Shown: piece by piece, positions 3,704 to 62,699 of the stretch | Position numbering within the stretch: the stretch's first letter is position 1 | How the letters are laid out: each line of letters opens with the position of its first letter | Source: Oscillospiraceae bacterium | GTDB lineage: Bacteria > Bacillota > Clostridia > Oscillospirales > Acutalibacteraceae | NCBI GenBank assembly: GCA_003538135.1 | Contig: DPOR01000005.1 | Location: 111,470 to 175,469 of the forward strand | Direction of reading: 5' to 3' | DNA: 64,000 bases | Translations under genes and position numbers: made by a program | Notes under the pieces: generated by a model | What the model was told of the DNA's origin: nothing | Seen by the model: only the letters and a program-made list of their open reading frames with translations | Database searches by the model: none

Positions 3704-3744
3704 CCTCGGGGAAATAAAAACGGGCGGTATTTATCCCGCTGATC

Positions 3745-3866
3745 CCTTCGCAATCTGCTTGCAGGGTCGAGCTTTGCTCGCCTGCTGTAGTTGCTTCATA
3801 AACCGCGGGCGGATAATATCCGCCCCTACACGGTTGCGATATACGCAAGCTGCTGTAATTTTGCGG
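3745..3866 (+). repeat. Intergenic repeat module A, copy 1 (122 bp)
   Basis: About 95% identical to 4215-4336 (offset 470 bp). Contains the hairpin GGCGGATaatATCCGCC and the string cccctacacggtt. Confidence 0.85.
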
Positions 3867-3877
3867 CTATTCACTCT

Positions 3878-3912
3878 GCAGGGTGCGGCGACTCGACGCA
3901 CCGCTGCCGCCG
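3878..3912 (+). repeat. Palindromic unit B (GGGTGCGGCGACTCGACGCACCGC type)
   Basis: Hairpin GGTGCG-gcgactcga-CGCACC followed by tgccgcc. Same unit at 4071-4106, and in inverse orientation at 62613-62660 and 61958-61990. Confidence 0.8.
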
Positions 3913-3967
3913 TCAAAAGCCCAAGTACAGACAATGAAGCCGGGATTTGCGGGAGATAAGCAATTAC

Positions 3968-4023
3968 GGCTCCCCTGCAGGGGAGCTGGCTCGGCGAAGC
4001 CGAGACTGAGGGGTTATTGCACG
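3968..4023 (+). repeat. Repeat module C (double hairpin GGCTCCCCTGCAGGGGAGC / CTCGGCgaaGCCGAG)
   Basis: Near-identical inverted copy at 61830-61884. Confidence 0.8.
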
Positions 4024-4070
4024 GATTCGCCCGATTTTTTCACGGCTGTTTAATTCTTCAATGTCCTTTT

Positions 4071-4106
4071 GTAGGGTGCGGCGACTCAACGCACCGCTGC
4101 CGCCGC
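4071..4106 (+). repeat. Palindromic unit B
   Basis: cttttgtagggtgcggcgactcaacgcaccgctgccgccgcagg; reverse complement nearly identical to 62613-62660. Confidence 0.8.
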
Positions 4107-4188
4107 AGGCGGCACAGAGGGCAAGCCGCAAGCAGAAAGCGTATTGCACAACGCGGATGAATAAATAGATTTTCGGTGACGCTAATGC

Positions 4189-4220
4189 GTCAAAGGGTCG
4201 TCGAGTCGCCGACCCCTACG
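4189..4220 (-). repeat. Palindromic unit B, variant (GGGTCGGCGACTCGACGACCC)
   Basis: caaagggtcgtcgagtcgccgacccctac; same variant at 54585-54617 and 62511-62546. Confidence 0.75.
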
Positions 4221-4336
4221 CAAGCTGCTTGCAGGGTCGAGCTTTGCTCGCCTGCTGTAGTTGCTTCATAAACCGCTGGCGGATGATATCCGCCCCTACA
4301 CGGTTGTGATATACGCAAGCTGCCGTAATTTTGCGG
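4215..4336 (+). repeat. Intergenic repeat module A, copy 2
   Basis: Direct repeat of 3745-3866. Confidence 0.85.
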
Positions 4337-4350
4337 ACGAACAAATTTTG

Positions 4351-4395
4351 CCCCTACGGTGTACCGCTTGCAATTGCGCCGCAACTCCCGATTTA
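4351..4395 (+). repeat. Repeat module D (cccctacggtgtaccgcttgcaattgcgccgcaactcccgattta)
   Basis: Related copies at 55134-55178, and fragments at 36583-36604 (inverted) and 36675-36706. Confidence 0.6.
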
Positions 4396-4481
4396 TCAAT
4401 CTCTTTAATCATCTCATAAAGCTTCAGCGCATACAGCAAAAATCGCCGGGAAATATTCCCCGGCGATCGAATCGACTGAAA

Positions 4482-5192
4482 TCATTGCCAATTGAAAACT
4501 ACTGTATATCCGTTTATGGCTTCTCCGAAGAGAGCTTTCAGTGTTTCTTCTGCGCTCTTTTGAGCGGTCTCAATTATTCCTTTTTCCTTGGCATCGTTTA
4601 TCAACTTTTTCTCAAGCTCGGATTGGGCGGCAGTGAAGTCGCCTATTGTGAGCTGATTAAAAATGTTTTTGGTCTGCTTGGCATCCTTTATTGATGACGG
4701 GTCGATATAGACATTTGTTATGCTTATCTTTATGTTGTCTATAGTTATGACATTGGTCTTCGAATTGACATTGATATTTGCGTCTGCAAGGTTCTCTATT
4801 CCGGCCTCAACATATCCCGTAAAAGTAAACGACATGGACTTGCCGTTCATTTTCAGCTTTTCGGAAAGCTTGTTGGCATACATTTTTCCGGAATCATATG
4901 TTGCAACCTGCTTATAGATACCTGTGTTCAGCTTCGCCTGCTCTTTCAGCGTCTCTTCGAGGATTTTCGTTGTAGATGCGGAGTAGGAATTCGGGAACAG
5001 CTTGAACATTATGTCATCCCAGTGCCGTCCGCAGACTACGCCCGCTCCGAGACCTATCGCAAGAGTCAGGATAACCGCAACAATAATCTGGAAAACCTGC
5101 TTTGCGCCCTTCTTCTTGATGCCCTTGAGCTCGCCCTGAATGTTGTCGAGTGCTGCCATCAGTTCCTGATTTTCTGTTCTTTCTTCAACCAT
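4482..5192 (-). CDS. DUF4230-like membrane-anchored protein
   Basis: Trimmed to MVEERTENQ (AGAGGAATCGTT RBS). N-terminal TM helix; ...GYVEAGIENL...ITIDNIKISITNVYIDP pattern. The gene is noticeably AT-richer than its surroundings. Confidence 0.55.
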   Translation of the reverse strand: MVEERTENQELMAALDNIQGELKGIKKKGAKQVFQIIVAVILTLAIGLGAGVVCGRHWDDIMFKLFPNSYSASTTKILEETLKEQAKLNTGIYKQVATYDSGKMYANKLSEKLKMNGKSMSFTFTGYVEAGIENLADANINVNSKTNVITIDNIKISITNVYIDPSSIKDAKQTKNIFNQLTIGDFTAAQSELEKKLINDAKEKGIIETAQKSAEETLKALFGEAINGYTVVFNWQ

Positions 5193-5231
5193 AACGATTC
5201 CTCTTTCACAAGATATTTCTGTATCGCGCAT

Positions 5232-5263
5232 TTTGATTATATCAAATCAAAATCATATAATCA
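5232..5263 (-). promoter_or_regulatory. Sigma-A promoter embedded in a 10-bp-arm perfect inverted repeat (putative operator)
   Basis: TTGATTATAT-12nt-ATATAATCAA. Read on the minus strand it gives TTGATT-17-TATAAT about 40 nt upstream of the 5192 start. Confidence 0.5.
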
Positions 5264-5322
5264 ACACATATTGACAAAATGCGCGCGTCTGTCCGTTTTA
5301 TCAGACAGACGCGGCTCCGCTT

Positions 5323-6147
5323 TTAGTCTCTCAGTTCTGTTAAATTCGCTACGATCTCTGCCTCAAGCTTCTTTTGCTGGCTTGCAGTTAAACGATCCGA
5401 GGTTCTTACCAAAACAGTTCCGACTACCCGATGCGAACCGGAGGCCAGACGCGAGCCGTCAAACTGAGCCAGATATTCGCATCTTTTTTCTGCATCTTCC
5501 CTGGTAACATATACTTCTATCGAACCCCCGCCGTCGGTTCCGTTATCAATAATCGTACCGTCAAGCCATCCTCTGTCTTCTGCTTTGATCTGACTTGACG
5601 CAAAATAGACTGTTGATGTATATCCGCCCGGCTTGTTCAGGTTGCCGTTGGGGTCATTATCCTCAGTTACACCCGCATATCCGGTTATAGTATCAATGTC
5701 CCTGATTCTTTCAATAATAAATGCCTCCGACGGATTTGTAAGTTGTTTCATTATCCTGATGCTGTTTTCAAGATTTGTCTTTGCCGTGGCCAGCATTTCT
5801 TTTGTTTCAACATAGCTGATTTTCTTCAGCTTTTCATTTACAAGCTCATTGATTTCTTTCGCATTGCCTCTTTTTTTGGGTATTTCAACAATCGCCGCCC
5901 TTGAGTCGGCAACTGCGGTTTCAAGAGTTGTTACCGTTGTTTTATCATACGGCTCCTCATGTGAATCAATGAGTTTCTGACTTTCTGCTATCACCTTTTC
6001 GAGGTCGTCGCGTTCCGCATTTATCCTTGTGCATTCCCTATCATAGTTCGCAACCGCCTGCTTGCGTTCTTCACTGCAGCCCGAAAGCAGAAGCACGACA
6101 GACAATATAATCGCTATCACAGATACAAAGCGTAAACTTCTTTTCAT
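5323..6147 (-). CDS. Lipoprotein, function unknown (coiled-coil N-term, Gly/Thr-rich C-terminal domain)
   Basis: MKRSLRFVSVIAIILSVVLLLSGC lipobox. Downstream hairpin plus T-tract terminator at about 5270-5320. Confidence 0.6.
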   Translation of the reverse strand: MKRSLRFVSVIAIILSVVLLLSGCSEERKQAVANYDRECTRINAERDDLEKVIAESQKLIDSHEEPYDKTTVTTLETAVADSRAAIVEIPKKRGNAKEINELVNEKLKKISYVETKEMLATAKTNLENSIRIMKQLTNPSEAFIIERIRDIDTITGYAGVTEDNDPNGNLNKPGGYTSTVYFASSQIKAEDRGWLDGTIIDNGTDGGGSIEVYVTREDAEKRCEYLAQFDGSRLASGSHRVVGTVLVRTSDRLTASQQKKLEAEIVANLTELRD

Positions 6148-6161
6148 GTTTATACATCCTT

Positions 6162-6446
6162 TCATTTTTTACCGTCATTGACGATTTTTCTGACCCATTT
6201 TTCGCTGTAGCCGTATTTTGTGGCGAGCTGCTTTATGTTGCTTCCGTCATACTCGGCCGCAATACGGCTTGATATGAATTCGTTCGAAAAAAAGTTTACC
6301 GGAAAATTGATCTGCTGGCCGCGGAATTCGGAATGCAGAGTCACGGCGGCTTCGATGCCGAGAAGATCGGAAATTTCGCTGTACACACCGTTCAGGTATT
6401 CACTTTTGATATCCTTTGAATCCATATCGGTAAAGACCTCTTTCAT
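6162..6446 (-). CDS. Mor-family-like small HTH regulator
   Basis: 94 aa; C-terminal ...IKQLATKYGYSEKWVRKIVND HTH resembling the Mor/C transcription-activator family. AGAAAGGAG RBS. Confidence 0.5.
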   Translation of the reverse strand: MKEVFTDMDSKDIKSEYLNGVYSEISDLLGIEAAVTLHSEFRGQQINFPVNFFSNEFISSRIAAEYDGSNIKQLATKYGYSEKWVRKIVNDGKK

Positions 6447-6645
6447 TTTTGCTCCTTTCTATTATGACTTGTCCAAACGGACTTTCATAGAGCGGCAGTT
6501 CCCGCGAACTGTTCATCGGAACAATTCAACGGGAACTTCTTTCGCTCTCATAACAGAAAATGTTTTTTTCGCGAGGTTACGATATGAGTCATGTTTATTG
6601 ATTTTTAAGATTAATCAAATTCCGCAGATGTTTTGTACAAAATAA

Positions 6646-6672
6646 AAAAGCAGCCCCGCTTTTGCGGGACTG
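6646..6672. terminator. Hairpin terminator (bidirectional-looking)
   Basis: aaaaaaGCAGCCCCGCttttGCGGGaCTGCc, downstream of the minus-strand gene ending at 6693. Confidence 0.5.
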
Positions 6673-6692
6673 CCGAACGCCGAATGTCGGAC

Positions 6693-8432: not shown

Positions 8433-9629
8433 TTGATGAAGTACAAAAAGGACGACGGCAAAAAAGATAATTGGCTCGATGATATTCTTTGGGGTGTCCC
8501 GTTAGGAGACAGCTTTGCCATAAATCTTAAAAGCGGCGAGGTTATTCCGCGCTATCGCATAGGCGACGGGTTCATTCCGGGCGAGAACGGCGACGATGAT
8601 TGGGAGAAGGACGAATTTGCCTTTAACGCCGATGATGATTGGGATAAGGAGGATTGGGAAAAAGACGAATTTGCCTTTGATGACGACGATGATGACGATG
8701 ATGAATACGAATTCGAGCTGTCGTTTGATTTCGGAATCCGCGACGCGTCCGAGTTCAGCCGCCGCGACGCGGACACGACAGAGGAGCAGTATTACGACCC
8801 CGACCGCCGGGTCTACTGCGTGGGCAGGGCGATACGCGACAATTTCAAGGAGATAGCCGACAGCTTTTCCGTAGAGGAGATGTTCTCGCTCGTCCAATGC
8901 ATAAACATCATCTTTTCGAGCAACCAAAAGCTCGCTGTCGACGCGGTGGCGTGGGCTGTTGAAAATTTTCCGAAGTCGCTCGAGGGCGCGACCTGCGAGG
9001 GCTATCGCTGCGGTCTGCCCACCGATCAGTTTTTGTCCGCCTTTACCTATACCGAGCACGGCGAGGACCGCAGCTTCGTCTACGACTATTTGGAGACTCA
9101 CCCGGAGTTTACAAAAGCGGTATTAAACCGTCAGCCGTTTTCGCTTCCGGGCTGGCCGACAAGGAACTATCTGCCGTATCTCGCCGAAAAAGGCGATGTC
9201 GAAAAATTCATCGAGGTATATAAGCTGCATATTGAAAACCCCCGTCTCGACCCCGTGGAATGCAGCAAGTTCAAGCTTATCGACGACCTTATTTTCCGCA
9301 TGAAAGACTGCTGCGACCACATCGACCACAGGATATATTCTTTCCTCAGGTCGGAGACGGAGTCCATGCCTGAGAAGCTCAAGGCGGACTATCTGCTCGG
9401 GCAGTTCGACTATGAGCGCTGCGGCAAGCCGCTGTTTGACAAGCCGCCCGGGCCCGGCAAGGAGAGCGTTTTCGCCCAAATAGAGCAGGCGCGAAGGCGC
9501 ATAAAGGAAATCGAAGAAGAGAGAAGCGGACTTTACCTCCGGATAAACGAGCTGGAAGAGGAGCGCGACCGCCAAGAGGAGCTGCTGAAAGAAATCGAGC
9601 GGCAGTATGCCGGCGAAGACGACATATGA
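8433..9629 (+). CDS. Hypothetical protein with acidic repeats (DDDWEKDEFAF x2, poly-Asp) and C-terminal coiled coil
   Basis: 398 aa; GGGAGGTG RBS. Internal repeat DDWEKDEFAFNADDDWDKEDWEKDEFAFDDDDDDDDE. C-terminal EIEEERSGLYLRINELEEERDRQEELLKEIE. No recognisable family. Confidence 0.6.
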   Translation: MMKYKKDDGKKDNWLDDILWGVPLGDSFAINLKSGEVIPRYRIGDGFIPGENGDDDWEKDEFAFNADDDWDKEDWEKDEFAFDDDDDDDDEYEFELSFDFGIRDASEFSRRDADTTEEQYYDPDRRVYCVGRAIRDNFKEIADSFSVEEMFSLVQCINIIFSSNQKLAVDAVAWAVENFPKSLEGATCEGYRCGLPTDQFLSAFTYTEHGEDRSFVYDYLETHPEFTKAVLNRQPFSLPGWPTRNYLPYLAEKGDVEKFIEVYKLHIENPRLDPVECSKFKLIDDLIFRMKDCCDHIDHRIYSFLRSETESMPEKLKADYLLGQFDYERCGKPLFDKPPGPGKESVFAQIEQARRRIKEIEEERSGLYLRINELEEERDRQEELLKEIERQYAGEDDI

Positions 9630-10395: not shown

Positions 10396-10583
10396 GAATG
10401 ACGGGTTTGGGAGAGAGCCGGTTTTCCGGCCACCGAAGGGGCGAAACTCTCAGGTAAAAGAACCGAGCCGGGACGGAGCTCTGGAAAGGCATTTGCACCG
10501 ACGAAGCAATCCGCGAAGCGGAGAATCTTTCAGGTAAAAAGACAGAGTACACCATTGTTTCTTATGGTGTACTCTTTTTTGTT
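10396..10583 (+). promoter_or_regulatory. Tandem glycine riboswitch (two aptamers) with terminator expression platform
   Basis: Aptamer 1: GGGAGAG...CACCGAAGGGGCGAA...CUCAGGUAAAAGAAC. Aptamer 2: CUCUGGAAAG...CACCGACGAAGCAAU...CUUUCAGGUAAAAAGACAG. Then hairpin AGAGTACACC-N12-GGTGTACTCT plus T6. Confidence 0.85.
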
Positions 10584-20040: not shown

Positions 20041-20126
20041 CTCAGGGTTCGAATCCCTTGAAAATAAAAAGAACGGAAGCAACACCTGCAGTATCGCTTC
20101 CGTTCTTGGCGCGCTGCAAGGGATAC
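20041..20126. repeat. Tandem repeat copy 1 (T-arm-like hairpin, terminator hairpin, 18-nt tRNA-Arg 3'-end fragment)
   Basis: ctcagggttcgaatcccttgaaaataaaaagaacggaagcaacacctgcagtatcgcttccgttcttggcgcgctgcaaggga is about 95% identical to 20236-20325 (period 195 bp). Confidence 0.8.
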
Positions 20127-20235: not shown

Positions 20236-20325
20236 CCCTCTCAGGGTTCGAATCCCTTGAAAATAAAAAAAGAACGGAAGCAACACCTGCGGTATTGCTT
20301 CCGTTCTTGGCGCGCTGCAAGGGAT
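20236..20325. repeat. Tandem repeat copy 2 (includes the genuine tRNA-Arg 3' end and its terminator)
   Basis: See copy 1. On the minus strand, GAACGGAAGC-N15-GCTTCCGTTC plus T7ATTTT forms the terminator (about 20253-20300) immediately 3' of tRNA-Arg. Confidence 0.8.
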
Positions 20326-20384
20326 TCGAACCCCTGACCTTTTGGTTCGTAGCCAAACACTCTATCCAACTGAGCTAGCAGCGC
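20308..20384 (-). tRNA. tRNA-Arg (anticodon ACG), CCA encoded
   Basis: GCGCTGCTAGCTCAGTTGGATAGAGTGTTTGGCTACGAACCAAAAGGTCAGGGGTTCGAATCCCTTGCAGCGCGCCA has cloverleaf-compatible arms and anticodon loop CUACGAA. Confidence 0.9.
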
Positions 20385-28496: not shown

Positions 28497-28582
28497 AATA
28501 TAACCTATATCCCCGCGGCAGCCGCGACATTGCAAATTACCGCCCATCGTTTTCAGGGTGCTTATGATATCCGCTTGCGGTT

Positions 28583-28652
28583 TTTGCAGTAACTTGCGGC
28601 TATTCATTTTGTAGGGGGCGGCGACTCGACACATCAACGGCGGCAATGCCGC
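28583..28652 (+). repeat. Palindromic unit B with conserved 5' flank (aacttgcggctattcattttgtagggggcggcgactcgac...)
   Basis: Shares ttgcggctattca...gtaggg.gcggcgactcgac with 3850-3912. Confidence 0.75.
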
Positions 28653-28713
28653 AACATCCACCCTCCGTCTCACTGCCTGCCGCATATAAATCAACTCTTT
28701 CAGGAGAAACGCC

Positions 28714-36509: not shown

Positions 36510-36559
36510 AATCCTGCCCGAGGGATTCCTTGGGTAGGATTTTTTGTGTATACGGCGCG
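36510..36559 (+). terminator. Terminator-containing repeat module E (hairpin + T6 + gtgtatacggc)
   Basis: AATCCTGCCCgagggattccttGGGTAGGATTTTTT; near-identical module at 54464-54513. Confidence 0.7.
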
Positions 36560-36582
36560 AAAAACGGGAATTGCGGGGGAGT

Positions 36583-36706
36583 TATAAGCGGTACACCGTA
36601 GGGGTGAACTTCGTTTGCCCGCAGAAACCACAGCGGCTAATCCGTGCAACACCCCCTCTGCCTCGCCTCCCCCATAATTGCAGCTGCGTCGCAACTCCCG
36701 CTTTAA
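36583..36706. repeat. Fragments of repeat module D
   Basis: tataagcggtacaccgtagggg (reverse complement of the module D 5' part) and taattgcagctgcgtcgcaactcccgcttta. Confidence 0.5.
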
Positions 36707-54429: not shown

Positions 54430-54463
54430 TATACCGCCCGCAGGCCTATAAGCATAAAAAAGC

Positions 54464-54513
54464 AATCCTACCCGAGGAACATCCCTTGGGTAGGATTTTT
54501 GTGTATACGGCAC
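54464..54513 (+). terminator. Terminator-containing repeat module E, second copy
   Basis: AATCCTACCCgaggaacatcccttGGGTAGGATTTTTgtgtatacggc. Confidence 0.7.
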
Positions 54514-54584
54514 GGCGAAGCGGAGATTTAGGGTTGTTGTCCGGGGTTGCCGATTTTTCCTTGTTTTTTTATTTTTAGATGTCC

Positions 54585-54993
54585 TTTTGTAGGGGTCGGC
54601 GACTCGACGACCCTTTGACGCGCCAGCGGCACGATGTTAGACTATAAAATTTTTACCCTCTGCCTTCGCTACCTACCTTAACTAAATATTTTATCTCTTA
54701 CAGCGTTTCGGCATTTTCTTTTTATTTGAAAAAGAAAACGCCTGCAAAAGAAAAGCAAACTCAGGGCTTCGCCCCGAGACCCCGCGAACGCCGCGCCGCA
54801 GTACATAGGTTTCTCTTCTCAGTAGGCAGCTCGGCACATTCGCCCGCAAACGCGCTGGAGCTTGAACGAGTGCGGGCTCGTGCGGCTTGCGTTGCAAGCC
54901 GTCCCCTCGCGTCCTCAGTTAGCTTGTTCCACTGCGACGCGGCTATTGGTGGCTTGTTCCTCATAATTTATCAAGTCGCTTGCTTTACCTTTT
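54585..54993 (+). repeat. Large inverted repeat, copy 1 (unit B variant plus ~370-bp GC-rich body)
   Basis: Aligns base-for-base (with a ~140-bp indel) to the reverse complement of 62026-62546: ttttgtaggggtcggcgactcgacgaccctttg...cggcacgatgtta...ctcagggcttcgccccgagaccccgcgaacgccgcgccgcagtacata...tttatcaagtcgcttgctttacctttt. Confidence 0.85.
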
Positions 54994-55133
54994 GCGAATC
55001 TCCTCATTAGTATTTTTCGTGTTCTACGGATTTAGAATAGCCGTAAATACCGCATAAACCGCAAGCGGATGATATTTCCCCTACACGGTTAAATATACAT
55101 CAGCCTCTGTATTTTCTGTAGCCGAACAAAGTT

Positions 55134-55178
55134 CACCCTGCGGTATACCTCTTGCAGCTGCGCTGTATCTTCCGATTT
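55134..55178 (+). repeat. Repeat module D-like copy
   Basis: caccctgcggtatacctcttgcagctgcgctgtatcttccgattt vs cccctacggtgtaccgcttgcaattgcgccgcaactcccgattt. Confidence 0.5.
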
Positions 55179-55202
55179 GTCCCCCTCTTTCCCGCACCGC
55201 AC

Positions 55203-55242
55203 ATAAAAATCCTGCCCGACAACGCCGCGGACAGGATTCTGT
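55203..55242 (-). terminator. Intrinsic terminator of the 2-hydroxyacid dehydrogenase gene
   Basis: Reverse strand ATCCTGTCCGCGGCGTTGTCGGGCAGGAT plus TTTTTATGTG. Confidence 0.6.
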
Positions 55243-55271
55243 TCTTCCGAAACCACGGGGCGTGTTCTCTT

Positions 55272-59805: not shown

Positions 59806-61675
59806 GTTTTCTGTTCTCCCTCTCCAGATGAATCAGCAGCACCGAAATGTCCGCAGGGCTGACTCCCGATATTCTCGACGCCTGGCCGACGTTCTCGGGG
59901 CGTATCTTTGAGAGCTTCTCGACTGCCTCAAGTCTCAGCCCGCCGAGCGCGGCATAGTCTATATCCCGCGGGATTTTTTTGACCTCCAAACGGCGCATCT
60001 CGTCAACCTGCGCCTGCTGGCGCTTTATGTAGCCCTCATATTTGATATCTATTTCAACCTGCTCGAACACCTCTTTGGGATAATTCGGGCGTGTCGGGTC
60101 AAACGGTGCGAGCAGCTTATAGTCGGCCTGCGGACGGCGCAGCAGCTCCGAGAGCCTTATTCCGCCGTCTATGGGCGATGTTTCACGTGAAACAAGCAGG
60201 TCGTTTAATTCCTTGCAGGCGTGGATAGTCGTGCTTTCCGCGCGGCGCTTCTCCTCGTCTATGAGCTCAAGCTTGCGGCAAAACGCATCGTAGCGCTCCT
60301 GCGAGATAAGTCCCAACTTGTAGCCCGTGGGAGTTAAGCGGCGGTCTGCGTTGTCCTGGCGGAGCAAAAGTCTGTATTCCGAGCGCGAGGTCATCATTCT
60401 GTACGGGTCGGAGCAGCCCTTTGTGACGAGGTCGTCTATGAGCGTTCCGATATACGATCCGGCGCGGTCGAGCTCGAGCGCGGGCTTGCCCTGAACTTTA
60501 AGCGCCGCGTTGATTCCCGCAACAAGACCCTGCGCGGCGGCCTCCTCATAGCCGCTGGAGCCGTTGAACTGACCCGCGCCGAAGAGCCCGTCGAAGTCGA
60601 TGAACTCAAGGCTGCGTTTGAGCGCAAGCGGGTCTATGCAGTCATACTCTATCGCATAGGCGGTGCGCATGACTTCGCAGTGCTCGAGTCCGGGAATCGT
60701 ATGCAGGAACTTCAGCTGCACATCCTCGGGCAGTGAGGACGAAAGTCCCTGAAGATACATCTCCAGAGTCTCTGCGCCGCAGGGCTCTATGAATATCTGA
60801 TGCCGCTCCTTCTCTGAAAAGCGGACTATTTTATCCTCTATGCTCGGGCAGTAGCGCGGCCCTACTCCGTCTATCTTGCCCGAAAAAAGCGGCGAGCGGT
60901 GGAGATTCGAGAGAATGACTTTCTTAGTCTCCTCCCCCGTATAAGTCACATAGCACTCGCTCTTGTTCTTCACCTCGTACTTGCCCGTGAACGAGAACGG
61001 CACTATATCCTCATCGCCGAACTGCGGCTCGAGCTTTTCGGTGTCAACGCTTCTGCGGTTGACTCGCGCGGGCGTGCCCGTCTTAAAGCGGCGCAGCGGG
61101 AGTCCGAGAGCCTTGAGCGATTTCGAAAGCTCCGTTGCCGGGAACATCCCGTCCGGACCGCTCTCATATGAGACGTCGCCGATATAGACTCTGCCGCCGA
61201 GGAATGTGCCCGTTGCGAGCACCACACACTTCGCGCGGTAGACGGCCTCGAGTCTGGTGGTAAGCACCCACTCGCCGGAGTCATAATAAATATCGACTAT
61301 TTCAGCCTGTCTGAGCGTCAGATTCTCCTGCTCCTCAAGCGTTCTTTTCATATATGCGCTGTATGCGCGTCTGTCAATCTGCGCGCGCGGGCTGTGAACC
61401 GCGGGGCCTTTGCCGAGATTGAGCATACGCATTTGAAGCGTATTCGCGTCTGCCGCAAGACCCATCTCGCCGCCGAGCGCGTCTATCTCGCGCACGAGGT
61501 GTCCTTTTGAAGTTCCGCCTATCGACGGGTTGCACGGCATATTGCCGACCCAATCGAGGTTGACGGTAAACACCTCCGTCCTGCAGCCGAGACGCGCCGA
61601 AGCAAGCCCCGCCTCGATTCCCGCGTGACCCGCGCCTATGACGGCAACATCTATTCTACCCGCATCGTATTTCAT
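59795..61675 (-). CDS. mnmG: tRNA uridine 5-carboxymethylaminomethyl modification enzyme MnmG (GidA)
   Basis: Trimmed to MKYDAGRIDVAVIGAGHAGIEA (FAD GxGxxG); 626 aa. Contains an internal parS copy at 60179-60194. Confidence 0.9.
   Translation of the reverse strand: MKYDAGRIDVAVIGAGHAGIEAGLASARLGCRTEVFTVNLDWVGNMPCNPSIGGTSKGHLVREIDALGGEMGLAADANTLQMRMLNLGKGPAVHSPRAQIDRRAYSAYMKRTLEEQENLTLRQAEIVDIYYDSGEWVLTTRLEAVYRAKCVVLATGTFLGGRVYIGDVSYESGPDGMFPATELSKSLKALGLPLRRFKTGTPARVNRRSVDTEKLEPQFGDEDIVPFSFTGKYEVKNKSECYVTYTGEETKKVILSNLHRSPLFSGKIDGVGPRYCPSIEDKIVRFSEKERHQIFIEPCGAETLEMYLQGLSSSLPEDVQLKFLHTIPGLEHCEVMRTAYAIEYDCIDPLALKRSLEFIDFDGLFGAGQFNGSSGYEEAAAQGLVAGINAALKVQGKPALELDRAGSYIGTLIDDLVTKGCSDPYRMMTSRSEYRLLLRQDNADRRLTPTGYKLGLISQERYDAFCRKLELIDEEKRRAESTTIHACKELNDLLVSRETSPIDGGIRLSELLRRPQADYKLLAPFDPTRPNYPKEVFEQVEIDIKYEGYIKRQQAQVDEMRRLEVKKIPRDIDYAALGGLRLEAVEKLSKIRPENVGQASRISGVSPADISVLLIHLERENRKHDK
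60179..60194. promoter_or_regulatory. parS site inside mnmG coding sequence
   Basis: TGTTTCACGTGAAACA; an identical perfect palindrome lies at 58040-58055. Confidence 0.75.
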
Positions 61676-61829
61676 TCGGTCAGTACCTCTATTCTCAACA
61701 GTATATCGCGCCGAACGCAAAGAGCGCGGCGCGGAAAATTTATAATCAGTCGGTGTCGTTGCGACGAGCAGACGCACCCTACAAAGGGACTTTGAAAAAT
61801 TAAACGGTCGGAGCAAAGCGGGCAACTGC

Positions 61830-61884
61830 GTGCAATAACCCCTCAGTCTCGGCTTCGCCGAGTCGGCTCCCCTGCAGGGGAGCC
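61830..61884 (-). repeat. Repeat module C, inverted copy
   Basis: Reverse complement of 3968-4023. Confidence 0.8.
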
Positions 61885-61957
61885 GACGAAACTTTTCTTT
61901 GTAATATCAAAAACCGCTTTCAAAGTTGGTCGAAATAAACATCCTGTGCCGCTATCG

Positions 61958-61990
61958 CGTCAGCGGTGCGTCGAGTCGCCGCACCCTACG
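61958..61990 (-). repeat. Palindromic unit B
   Basis: gcggtgcgtcgagtcgccgcaccctac. Confidence 0.75.
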
Positions 61991-62025
61991 GTCTGTGTTT
62001 AACATTGTAAATCATGCAAGCTCCA

Positions 62026-62546
62026 AAAAGGTAAAGCAAGCGACTTGATAAAAACCGATGAGCAAGTTTCCAATAGCCGTGCCGCAGTGTAACAGGCTAT
62101 CTGAGAACGCGGGCAACGTCGCCGAAGCGCCGCCGGTGGCGGATAAAGCGAGGCGATGTTGGCGAAAAACAAGGAGCATAGCGCCCGCTCCAAGGGCGAT
62201 AGGCGACTATGTTTTGAGAGGGCTGAACGGCTTGCGCAGCAAGCCGCACGAGCCCGCACTCGTCCAAGCTCCAGCGCGTTTGCGGGCGAATGTGCCGAGC
62301 TACCTACTGAGTAGCACAAGCTATGTACTGCGGCGCGGCGTTCGCGGGGTCTCGGGGCGAAGCCCTGAGTTTGCTTTTCTTTTGCAGGCGTTTTCTTTTT
62401 CAAATAAAAAGAAAATGCCGAAACGCTGTAGAAGATAAAATATTTAGCTAAGGTAGGTAGCGAAGGTGGTGGGTAAAAAATTTATAGTATAACATCGTGC
62501 CGCTGTCACAGCAAAGGGTCGTCGAGTCGCCGACCCCTACAAAGTC
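62026..62546 (-). repeat. Large inverted repeat, copy 2 (includes ~140-bp insertion relative to copy 1)
   Basis: Reverse complement aligns with 54585-54993. Ends with unit B variant caaagggtcgtcgagtcgccgacccctacaaa. Confidence 0.85.
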
Positions 62547-62612
62547 ACTGAAAATCTATTTATTACCGCCCGTGTCTTGTAATACACTCTCTGCTTGAGG
62601 TTTGACCTCTGT

Positions 62613-62660
62613 GCCGCCTGCGGCGGCAGCGGTGCGTCGAGTCGCCGCACCCTACAAAAA
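62613..62660 (-). repeat. Palindromic unit B
   Basis: cctgcggcggcagcggtgcgtcgagtcgccgcaccctacaaaaag, the reverse complement of 4063-4110. Confidence 0.8.
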
Positions 62661-62699
62661 GCCCGTTTATTTTACACAACTCGCAACACCTGTCGCAAA

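Follow-up and report, generated by a model that had tools for sequence, protein, structure and literature searches.

What are the repeats that fill an intergenic spacer of a clostridial genome, and what could have spread them? The question is raised by positions 3704-4481 of a 64,000-nucleotide stretch of contig DPOR01000005.1 from an Oscillospiraceae bacterium (the window, below), where a preliminary description had seen a dense mosaic of palindromic repeat modules. Our analysis indicates that this spacer is probably a cluster resembling the bacterial interspersed mosaic elements (BIMEs), made of two families of repetitive extragenic palindromes (REPs) with a GTAG head and of accessory modules, and that it belongs to a system of REPs and REP-associated tyrosine transposases (RAYTs) of gut Clostridia. 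By analogy with enzymes studied elsewhere, the hairpins are likely to be recognition sites of small RAYT-like enzymes of the HUH-Y1 type.

A spacer assembled from hairpin modules

The spacer is non-coding and repeat-filled. On its left it is bordered by the promoter (TTGAAA-17-TATAAT, 3703-3675) of a leftward DRTGG/HATPase/Fe-hydrogenase-like operon and on its right by the terminator of a DUF4230 gene (4468-4441). Recurring modules make up 3737-4406, with none expected by chance, which bears out the earlier statement that some 660 bp are built of reusable parts. The two copies of module A and the spacing between them were also described correctly; their length, given as 122 bp, measured 130 nt. 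The features of the spacer are as follows.

3737-3866, plus strand: module A, copy 1; 130 nt, 94% identical to 4207-4336 at a spacing of 470
3808-3829, minus strand: type-2 REP in module A copy 1; GTAG followed by GGGCGGATA-T-TATCCGCC, a pattern match with none expected by chance
3878-3912, plus strand: type-1 REP, variant 1 (GGTGCG/CGCACC); head GCAG, second hairpin truncated
3914-4066, plus strand: module C; double hairpin (3968-4010), CTGAGGGGTT and a leader of about 55 nt that reaches the next REP head
4071-4115, plus strand: type-1 REP, variant 1; second hairpin TGCCGCC/GGCGGCA with a GCAC end; left arm of an inverted doublet
4116-4175, no strand assigned: doublet spacer, found again at 62544-62620 (minus strand) and in L017, L077 and L098 (L numbers denote loci fetched from other genomes)
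4176-4219, minus strand: type-1 REP, variant 2 (GGGTCG/CGACCC); right arm of the doublet
4207-4336, plus strand: module A, copy 2; 94% identical to copy 1
4278-4299, minus strand: type-2 REP in module A copy 2; pattern match
4329-4406, plus strand: module D, adjoining a low-GC islet; matches 36626-36561 (minus strand) at 79% and also 55120-55190

The REPs at 4071 (plus) and 4219 (minus) form a head-out inverted heterodimer, and the whole of 4071-4219 can fold as one long hairpin (z -4.75). The islet next to module D (about 4400-6680) holds three minus-strand genes, for a Mor-like late activator, a 280-aa protein without assignment and the DUF4230 protein; it is missing from L077, and its left edge abuts module D.

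REP structure and stem covariation

The palindrome first called unit B, our type-1 REP, was described from 145 loop-anchored instances in the window and in loci fetched elsewhere. Its head reads GTAG in 132 of the 145 and GCAG in five, and the 6-bp stem that follows exists in three compensated forms, GGTGCG/CGCACC (77 instances), GGGTCG/CGACCC (48) and GGGGCG/CGCCCC (11). Stem pairs 3 and 4 switch jointly between T-A and G-C (72/59 and 84/47), with a mismatch in just 4 of 133 instances of a set on which no stem requirement was imposed. The 9-nt loop, GCGACTCGA, is almost invariant and folds as a G/A mismatch followed by two inner pairs with the triloop ACT. A second short hairpin of the form TGC-stem-loop-stem-GCA-C has a covarying stem as well (CCGCC/GGCGG, CCGC/GCGG or TGAC/GTCA). 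The GTAG REP super-family is defined by a GTAG tetranucleotide in front of a palindrome (PMC3733652). Since unit B joins this head to a palindrome with compensatory stem variants, we regard it as a REP. Furthermore, the combination of an invariant loop and covarying stems fits those enzymes that read loop bases (PMC8266576).

The type-2 REP is the core of module A and has the form GTAG-GGGCGGATA-N-TATCCGCCC, with a 9-bp stem and a loop of 1-3 nt; about 51 GTAG-headed sites were found in the fetched loci. As single-stranded DNA the hairpins fold at -13 to -15.5 kcal/mol (z -2.1 to -5), in agreement with the stability first ascribed to them, and the type-2 hairpin at 3808-3829 folds at -13.1 kcal/mol (z -5.05). 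Head-out inverted pairs number 11, nine of which are type-1/type-2 heterodimers of other loci with their members 99-125 nt apart, and these pairs fold as long hairpins. Module C consists of the double hairpin GGCTCCCCTGCAGGGGAGC, then GGCTCGGC-GAA-GCCGAGAC, then CTGAGGGGTT; its core occurs in 43 REP-selected loci, and its second stem has one compensated pair. A comparison of all modules and repeat-rich spacers with Rfam 15 returned nothing at gathering scores and, at E up to 10, only chance-level hits of the miRNA type.

Dispersal within and beyond the window

Could the mosaic be a local duplication, or a chance similarity confined to the region? Module A, the largest repeat, is indeed duplicated just 470 bp apart. 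However, a search of the window with GTAGGGNNCGGCGACTCGACGNNCC (at most 2 mismatches, 100 shuffles as control) gave 8 matches to unit B and none in any shuffle, at 3878 (plus), 4071 (plus), 4195-4219 (minus), 28611 (plus, degenerate), 54589 (plus), 61965-61989 (minus), 62516-62540 (minus) and 62631-62655 (minus). The sites given earlier near 28602, 54591, 61958, 62511 and 62613 are these same matches with their flanks included. Every window copy is intergenic, in the spacers 3704-4481, 28497-28694, 54430-55271 and about 61650-62699. With repeat copies in five separate window spacers and in more than 100 loci of other genomes, a local origin is refuted. The copies outside the first spacer are these.

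28611-28635, plus strand: degenerate type-1 REP; unit B pattern match
36561-36626, minus strand: module D copy; 79% match to 4329-4394
54589-54632, plus strand: type-1 REP, variant 2; tail points to the RNA-like element described below
55053-55190, plus strand: degenerate copy of modules A and D; 74% identity to 4267-4406
61750-61782, minus strand: degenerate REP variant with its loop replaced; family D3
61787-61885, minus strand: module C copy; 3967-4096 matches 61885-61757 at 85%, with the double-hairpin part at 61865-61884
61946-61989, minus strand: type-1 REP, variant 1; unit B pattern match
62497-62540, minus strand: type-1 REP, variant 2; tail-first, downstream of the RNA-like element
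62611-62655, minus strand: type-1 REP, variant 1; unit B pattern match

The recurrence of module C near 61830 and of module D near 36583 and 55134 was thus confirmed (a further module D site at 36675 is a partial match, judged by eye). The pair at 62516 and 62631 is in direct rather than inverted orientation and matches the 4071-4219 doublet only in its type-1 half and spacer.

The family is dispersed, as first proposed, and the outcome named in advance as refuting this, a restriction of the repeats to the window, did not come about. A pattern scan of one genome per species found unit B at 104 or more loci. No fewer than 18 Clostridia assemblies, with the labels Acutalibacteraceae, Ruminococcaceae, Oscillospiraceae or Candidatus Fimenecus, contain its GTAG-headed form, with at least 32, at least 22 and at least 17 copies in partial samples of three of them. 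The family also occurs in many human-gut metagenomes, and the stem variants of the type-1 REP vary by lineage. Four pattern matches outside Clostridia (Streptomyces, Haloechinothrix, Chloroflexota) were taken as chance, being without the GTAG form, as were two core-motif matches inside a coding gene (L041 and L072).

A comparison between strains, as had been suggested, was possible with several loci orthologous to parts of the window (85-92% identity), and the modules prove to be present or absent among relatives. The closest relative, L077, is without 3743-3913 and carries instead, within the doublet, part of the large element. At the 28.5-kb intergenic site four related genomes show four different module mosaics. 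At 54.6 kb the REP tail '...CGGCAC' is followed by the large element in the window, and by a doublet spacer and a REP in SVS042. Overall, modules A, C and D, the doublet spacer and the RNA-like element are combined in variable order at intergenic sites, a mosaic of the BIME type. A 177-bp unit of module C plus REP is present in one strain and absent from another within flanks of 95-99% identity (L003 versus L044), and at this clean indel we found neither target-site duplication nor terminal inverted repeats. By these two marks the element is no transposable element of the miniature inverted-repeat type (MITE): of the composite label REP/MITE-like, the REP half stands on the GTAG head, the palindrome and the dispersal, and the MITE half falls.

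The RAYT-like gene and its locus

The preliminary description associated no transposase with the repeats. This holds for the window and fails for its relatives, where a RAYT-like gene lies among the same REPs at a syntenic locus. An open reading frame (ORF) of 158 aa stands directly between unit-B REPs in three related species, and the REP-flanked gene was seen in L044, L082, L103 and L225-L232. Its protein matches Pfam Y1_Tnp, and the NCBIfam family of REP-associated tyrosine transposases (REP_Tyr_transpos) is the only family match for all 31 members scanned. The HIH motif and the Y-x3-NP motif (YIDTNP) align with Y115/N119 of 4ER8, the E. coli TnpA_REP structure; Y-x3-NP is the signature of class 2, that of TnpA_REP (PMC6006769). 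Against the PDB the family profile finds 4ER8 best (E 7e-8; ISDra2, 1e-2), and the AlphaFold model (pLDDT 83) superposes best on 4ER8 as well (TM 0.64, 2.8 A). Membership in RAYT group 1/subclass 2.1 was ruled out: those proteins are long and bear a C-terminal helix-turn-helix domain (PMC6006769), and ours measure 158-170 aa.

An identical RAYT protein was read on 24 metagenome contigs, and all 8 contig places listed have the same neighbours, a 1376-aa protein on one side and UDG-MscL-DegV-pyr genes on the other. Synteny of the locus extends to SVS042 and UBA6855. On its upstream side the gene has three REP doublets, on its downstream side two; the REP-RAYT-REP unit spans about 660 bp, with both flanking REPs in the same orientation. 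The RAYT locus of the relatives is a REPtron. In the H07622 bin, the closest to the window, the RAYT and the REP arrays are gone and one solo REP is left (L003:5770-5820 compared with L225:5465-6831). Loss of rayT has been reported for many E. coli strains (PMC3733652). If the window genome, like this closest relative, has lost its RAYT, the window REPs may be orphans or relics.

The same locus bears on whether the repeats could be non-autonomous derivatives, of the MITE type or that of palindrome-associated transposable elements (PATEs), of an ordinary self-mobilising IS200/IS605 element rather than of a domesticated RAYT. The protein is a Y1 HUH enzyme, and a unit of about 660 bp with flanking REPs in one orientation is IS200-like. 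However, the signature is the Y-x3-NP of class 2 and not Y-x3-Q (PMC6006769), sequence and fold are nearest to E. coli TnpA_REP, the gene occupies one syntenic site (the 8 contig places listed, of 24 contigs, and two further species) and not many, and the GTAG head is a REP hallmark (PMC3733652). With no Y-x3-Q and no multicopy autonomous element, membership in IS200/IS605 or the PATEs was rejected, and we consider this origin very unlikely.

Homologues at about 55% identity stand in host operons that leave no room for flanking REPs, for example ruvC-ruvA-X-ruvB and nrdDG-X-hflX. A RAYT-like gene (about 53% identity) lies between ruvA and ruvB at L235:985-4045 and L237:1199-4132, a placement that suggests a host role in recombination or repair.

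REP hairpins within RAYT-like reading frames

A generic finder of GTAG hairpins matched inside the ORFs of the operon-borne homologues. Motif 1 of these proteins, V-G-G-G-(A/D)-L-D-A-P, is encoded by GTA GGG GGC GGC GAC CTC GAC GCC CC, which is unit B but for an additional C in its loop and was found in 8 of 9 genes examined; the 10-nt loop is retained in some extragenic REPs. Motif 2, G-x-S-x-A-P-x-P-T, is an inverted second copy 171-174 nt downstream in many members, and in L239 the two intragenic copies are exact reverse complements. At the DNA level, in-frame REPs were seen in about ten RAYT genes, including the following.

L225:6115-6140; L235:2624-2649 and 2781-2806; L239:1621-1646 and 1795-1820: in-frame REP hairpins at two fixed loops
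L141, near 11900, minus strand: in-frame type-2 REP hairpin in a RAYT-like paralogue

The intragenic stems are kept paired by compensatory non-synonymous changes. Residues of codons 3 and 8 of motif 1 occur as (G,A) in 103 cases, (D,V) in 4, (I,D) in 1 and (V,N) in 1, with the codon pairs GGC/GCC, GAC/GTC, ATC/GAT and GTT/AAC, respectively. Residues 2 and 7 of motif 2 occur as (T,S) in 44, (P,A) in 7, (A,P) in 3 and (S,T) in 2, which are A-T, C-G, G-C and T-A pairs at first codon positions. When the stems were checked on DNA, 6 of 6 pairs formed in both L239 and L241. This covariation at the protein level is explained only by pairing of the DNA or RNA.

The L141 paralogue (39% identity) contains ...S-G-R-M-I-S-A-P-T..., encoded with GGGCGGATGATATCCGCCCCTAC, a base-for-base match to window positions 4278-4300. 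The segment GGCGGATGATATCCGCCCCTACA of the type-2 REP in module A copy 2 is identical to the in-frame segment that encodes GRMISAPT, and the type-2 hairpin of module A copy 1 is likewise in frame within this second RAYT-like gene of L141. Consequently, both REP families of the 660 bp are represented within RAYT-like genes, unit B in motif 1 and GGGCGGATGATATCCGCCCCTAC in L141.

The RAYT-like family is very large, with 30,761 clusters among representatives at the level of 50% identity (E up to 1e-3), and the breakpoints of its alignment concentrate at the two REP-encoded loops. Both REP-encoded segments are loops in the AlphaFold model (residues 40-47 and 90-101), that of motif 1 after strand beta1 and that of motif 2 after the HUH strand. 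Members P0127, P0173, P0130, P0139 and P0269 have in-frame tandem expansions at exactly the two intragenic REP positions, with GTSGAPSPT repeated four times and INRPHDSP six times as examples. The six REPs at rayT of E. coli K-12 are all outside the gene and none inside, and a limited search of the literature brought up no account of REPs within the ORF of a RAYT. The doublet spacer was also compared with the gene segment between the two intragenic hairpins and is not homologous to it, the likeness being confined to the hairpin of about 27 nt.

These in-frame copies also bear on a second alternative, in which the hairpins are host-selected elements (terminators, stabilisers of mRNA 3' ends or protein-binding sites) that recombination has spread, and the RAYT neighbourhood is incidental. 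In favour of this, the window copies are all intergenic, and an RNA function would also predict the covariation of their stems; some copies follow directly upon terminator-like hairpins (for example, 54464-54514 before 54589), and REPs persist in a relative without RAYT. However, the hairpins are of mixed orientation relative to neighbouring genes, and RAYTs of other systems read the invariant loop and the GTAG head (PMC8266576). Host selection leaves this head, the concentration of REP arrays at the RAYT locus and the identical hairpin within a RAYT reading frame unexplained, and we regard it as unlikely, although the hairpins may serve such a function at present.

Under a REP-RAYT system, the in-frame copies admit a bolder interpretation, which we put forward tentatively and with some doubt. 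The REP that a RAYT gene has in frame may be the enzyme's own, kept as a protected master copy or as a self-target, and unit B and the module-A core of the window would descend from such copies; the tandem expansions might then record the enzyme acting on its own gene. Separately, the mosaic might disperse a REP-attached, as yet uncatalogued gene for a structured small RNA.

An RNA-like element among the REPs

The large element mentioned above contains an RNA-like unit, which occurs twice in the window.

54741-54946, minus strand: short form of the RNA-like element; 206 nt, with an intrinsic terminator at its end
62073-62388, plus strand: long form of the RNA-like element; 316 nt, of which 110 nt are an optional insert, with its terminator at 62351-62369

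These are part of a repeat of about 400-520 nt (54586-54993 matches 62543-62026, with 93% identity over 317 nt). The repeat of about 400 nt was tried as a gene and rejected, as an Ala/Arg-rich antisense ORF is common to its two copies over no more than the first 27 residues, after which the frame shifts. A conserved box resembling TATAAT or TATAAA lies 12-25 nt upstream of the element, which has a 13-bp closing helix with G-U wobbles and two hairpins; its intrinsic terminator exists in three versions, each fully compensated. When 42 non-redundant copies were compared, 98.7% of the cells were paired, and both sides had changed in 6 pairs. The observed percentage of paired cells, the number of cells with both sides changed and the covariation score were reached by none of 500 shuffles; the tally of pairs with a change on both sides was reached by 2 of the 500, and that of additional pair types by 38. 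The folding energy of the single sequence is no better than that of shuffles (z -0.74), so that structural support comes from covariation only. Judged in this way, the element looks like a structured small RNA.

The element was found at 120 or more human-gut metagenome loci, with no matches in viral contigs and no family match in Rfam 15. A REP follows it in 32 of 73 copies, always tail-first and at a fixed distance. An RNA cassette bounded by REPs in place of the RAYT was rejected as the general architecture, with REPs on both sides in just 3 of 73. Some copies elsewhere than in the window carry a 187-nt insert, a long hairpin, in the terminator loop (L141:1155-1341, L173:3654-3830 and 10 other loci).

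Proposed mechanism and points that weigh against it

Cleavage and rejoining beside a folded REP have been shown for enzymes of E. coli, Stenotrophomonas and Marinomonas (PMC8266576). By analogy with E. coli TnpA_REP, a RAYT would bind single-stranded DNA at the folded GTAG hairpin, cleave at a dinucleotide next to the hairpin and then rejoin the ends. In this way REPs, inverted doublets and the cargo attached to them could be copied or moved with no duplication of the target, and recombination between copies could shuffle the modules into mosaics. We infer that RAYTs act catalytically on these REPs and are their mobiliser. As a speculation, the recurrent junction right after the GCAC tail is compatible with cleavage at CA/CT.

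Several observations weigh against this account. A tblastn search of the 64-kb window found no Y1 transposase, and three of the RAYT-like proteins score 56-64 bits, below the equivalog cut-off of 80 of NCBIfam NF047646. The intragenic stem of the closest RAYTs is GGGGCG/CGCCCC, whereas the extragenic copies there are mostly GGTGCG or GGGTCG, and thus enzyme and REP are not matched one-to-one. The sampled REPs are mostly singlets or direct pairs, with doublets the minority, and the GTAG head is missing from modules C and D and from the RNA-like element. Finally, many homologues stand in operons of the ruvA-X-ruvB type without an adjacent REP, so that the function of the family may be unrelated to REP spread.

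Relation to known systems

REP/BIME-RAYT systems are of a known kind; Clostridia as a host of abundant GTAG REPs are essentially new. The 2013 survey of GTAG REPs lists none in Firmicutes (PMC3733652). In a 2017 survey the only RAYT group noted in Clostridia was Group 1, with flanking repeats far rarer than in the REP-associated Groups 2 and 3 (PMC5581495). Given the 2013 survey and the lack of an Rfam match, the expectation that the repeats would be unusual and probably unannotated was fair. Two things go beyond the known pattern, the in-frame REPs of RAYT-like genes and the cargo resembling a small RNA.

The system resembles the REP/BIME and RayT system of E. coli (TnpA_REP, RAYT group 2, 4ER8) in the GTAG head, the palindrome with a stem irregularity and the heterodimer doublets (PMC3733652, PMC6006769). 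It shares with it the mosaic clusters with other motifs, the deletion of the gene in some strains and the single small HUH-Y1 gene flanked by REP pairs (165 aa in E. coli, 158 aa here). In contrast, the proteins are only about 21% identical, and those described here fall under the NCBIfam cut-off; the clostridial REP includes an additional hairpin and a loop of 9 nt that is invariant, and it occurs in frame inside the gene; and the host is a Gram-positive anaerobe.

With the REPIN-RAYT systems of Pseudomonas and Stenotrophomonas (group 3) the clostridial one shares perfect-stem REPs with loop bases that matter (10.1101/2021.07.10.451892; PMC8266576), inverted doublets that form long hairpins, and a vertically inherited RAYT in a fixed extragenic space (single-copy there, seen at one syntenic locus here). 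Unlike those REPINs, the clostridial doublets are heterodimeric, have spacers of 99-125 nt and are a minority. IS200/IS605 elements and their palindrome-associated derivatives offer a Y1 HUH enzyme that acts on subterminal hairpins of single-stranded DNA, a 5' guide-like tetranucleotide and no target duplication; they differ in being Y-x3-Q, dimeric and multicopy autonomous, whereas the clostridial protein is Y-x3-NP, sits at one syntenic locus and has a fold nearest to the monomeric TnpA_REP. REP hairpins in frame within coding sequences are known from repair and replication genes (Di Nocera 2013, PMC3733652). Those described here differ in that the host gene is itself RAYT-like, in their two fixed loops across a large family, and in their inverted orientation, compensatory non-synonymous changes and in-frame tandem expansions.

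Other features of the window

The mnmE-mnmG spacer (61826-62699) is a mosaic of about 870 bp that includes an opposite-strand RNA-like unit; in many bacteria the mnmE-mnmG region lies near the replication origin. The listed start of the 676-aa mnmG ORF, at 61825, is probably about 58 codons too far upstream. A terminator-like module common to 36510-36559 and 54464-54514 (87% identity) lies directly upstream of repeat-rich spacers and is also present in L015, L017 and L087. A hairpin or terminator-like repeat at 20041-20124 and 20240-20325, with copies 95% identical, stands beside a tRNA (20311-20384) and is unrelated to the REP family. Positions 10398-10547 hold a tandem glycine riboswitch with two aptamers, and 8595-8702 a 54-nt tandem repeat within a coding region, whose product is an acidic, D/E/W-rich peptide.

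Significance

Work on REPs and RAYTs has so far been almost entirely in Proteobacteria, and the system is hardly described in gut Clostridia. The present one combines two REP families, doublets, mosaics and a syntenic RAYT in abundant, poorly cultured Clostridia of the human gut, where it is unannotated. Its REP mosaics probably fragment metagenome assemblies, and its RNA-like element is a candidate for a new non-coding RNA family of gut Clostridia. Close relatives with and without RAYT constitute a natural test of whether REPs decay after the enzyme is lost. Furthermore, from sequence alone the in-frame REPs link each REP family with its enzyme, and they bear on the origin of REPs and on the matching of enzyme and substrate.

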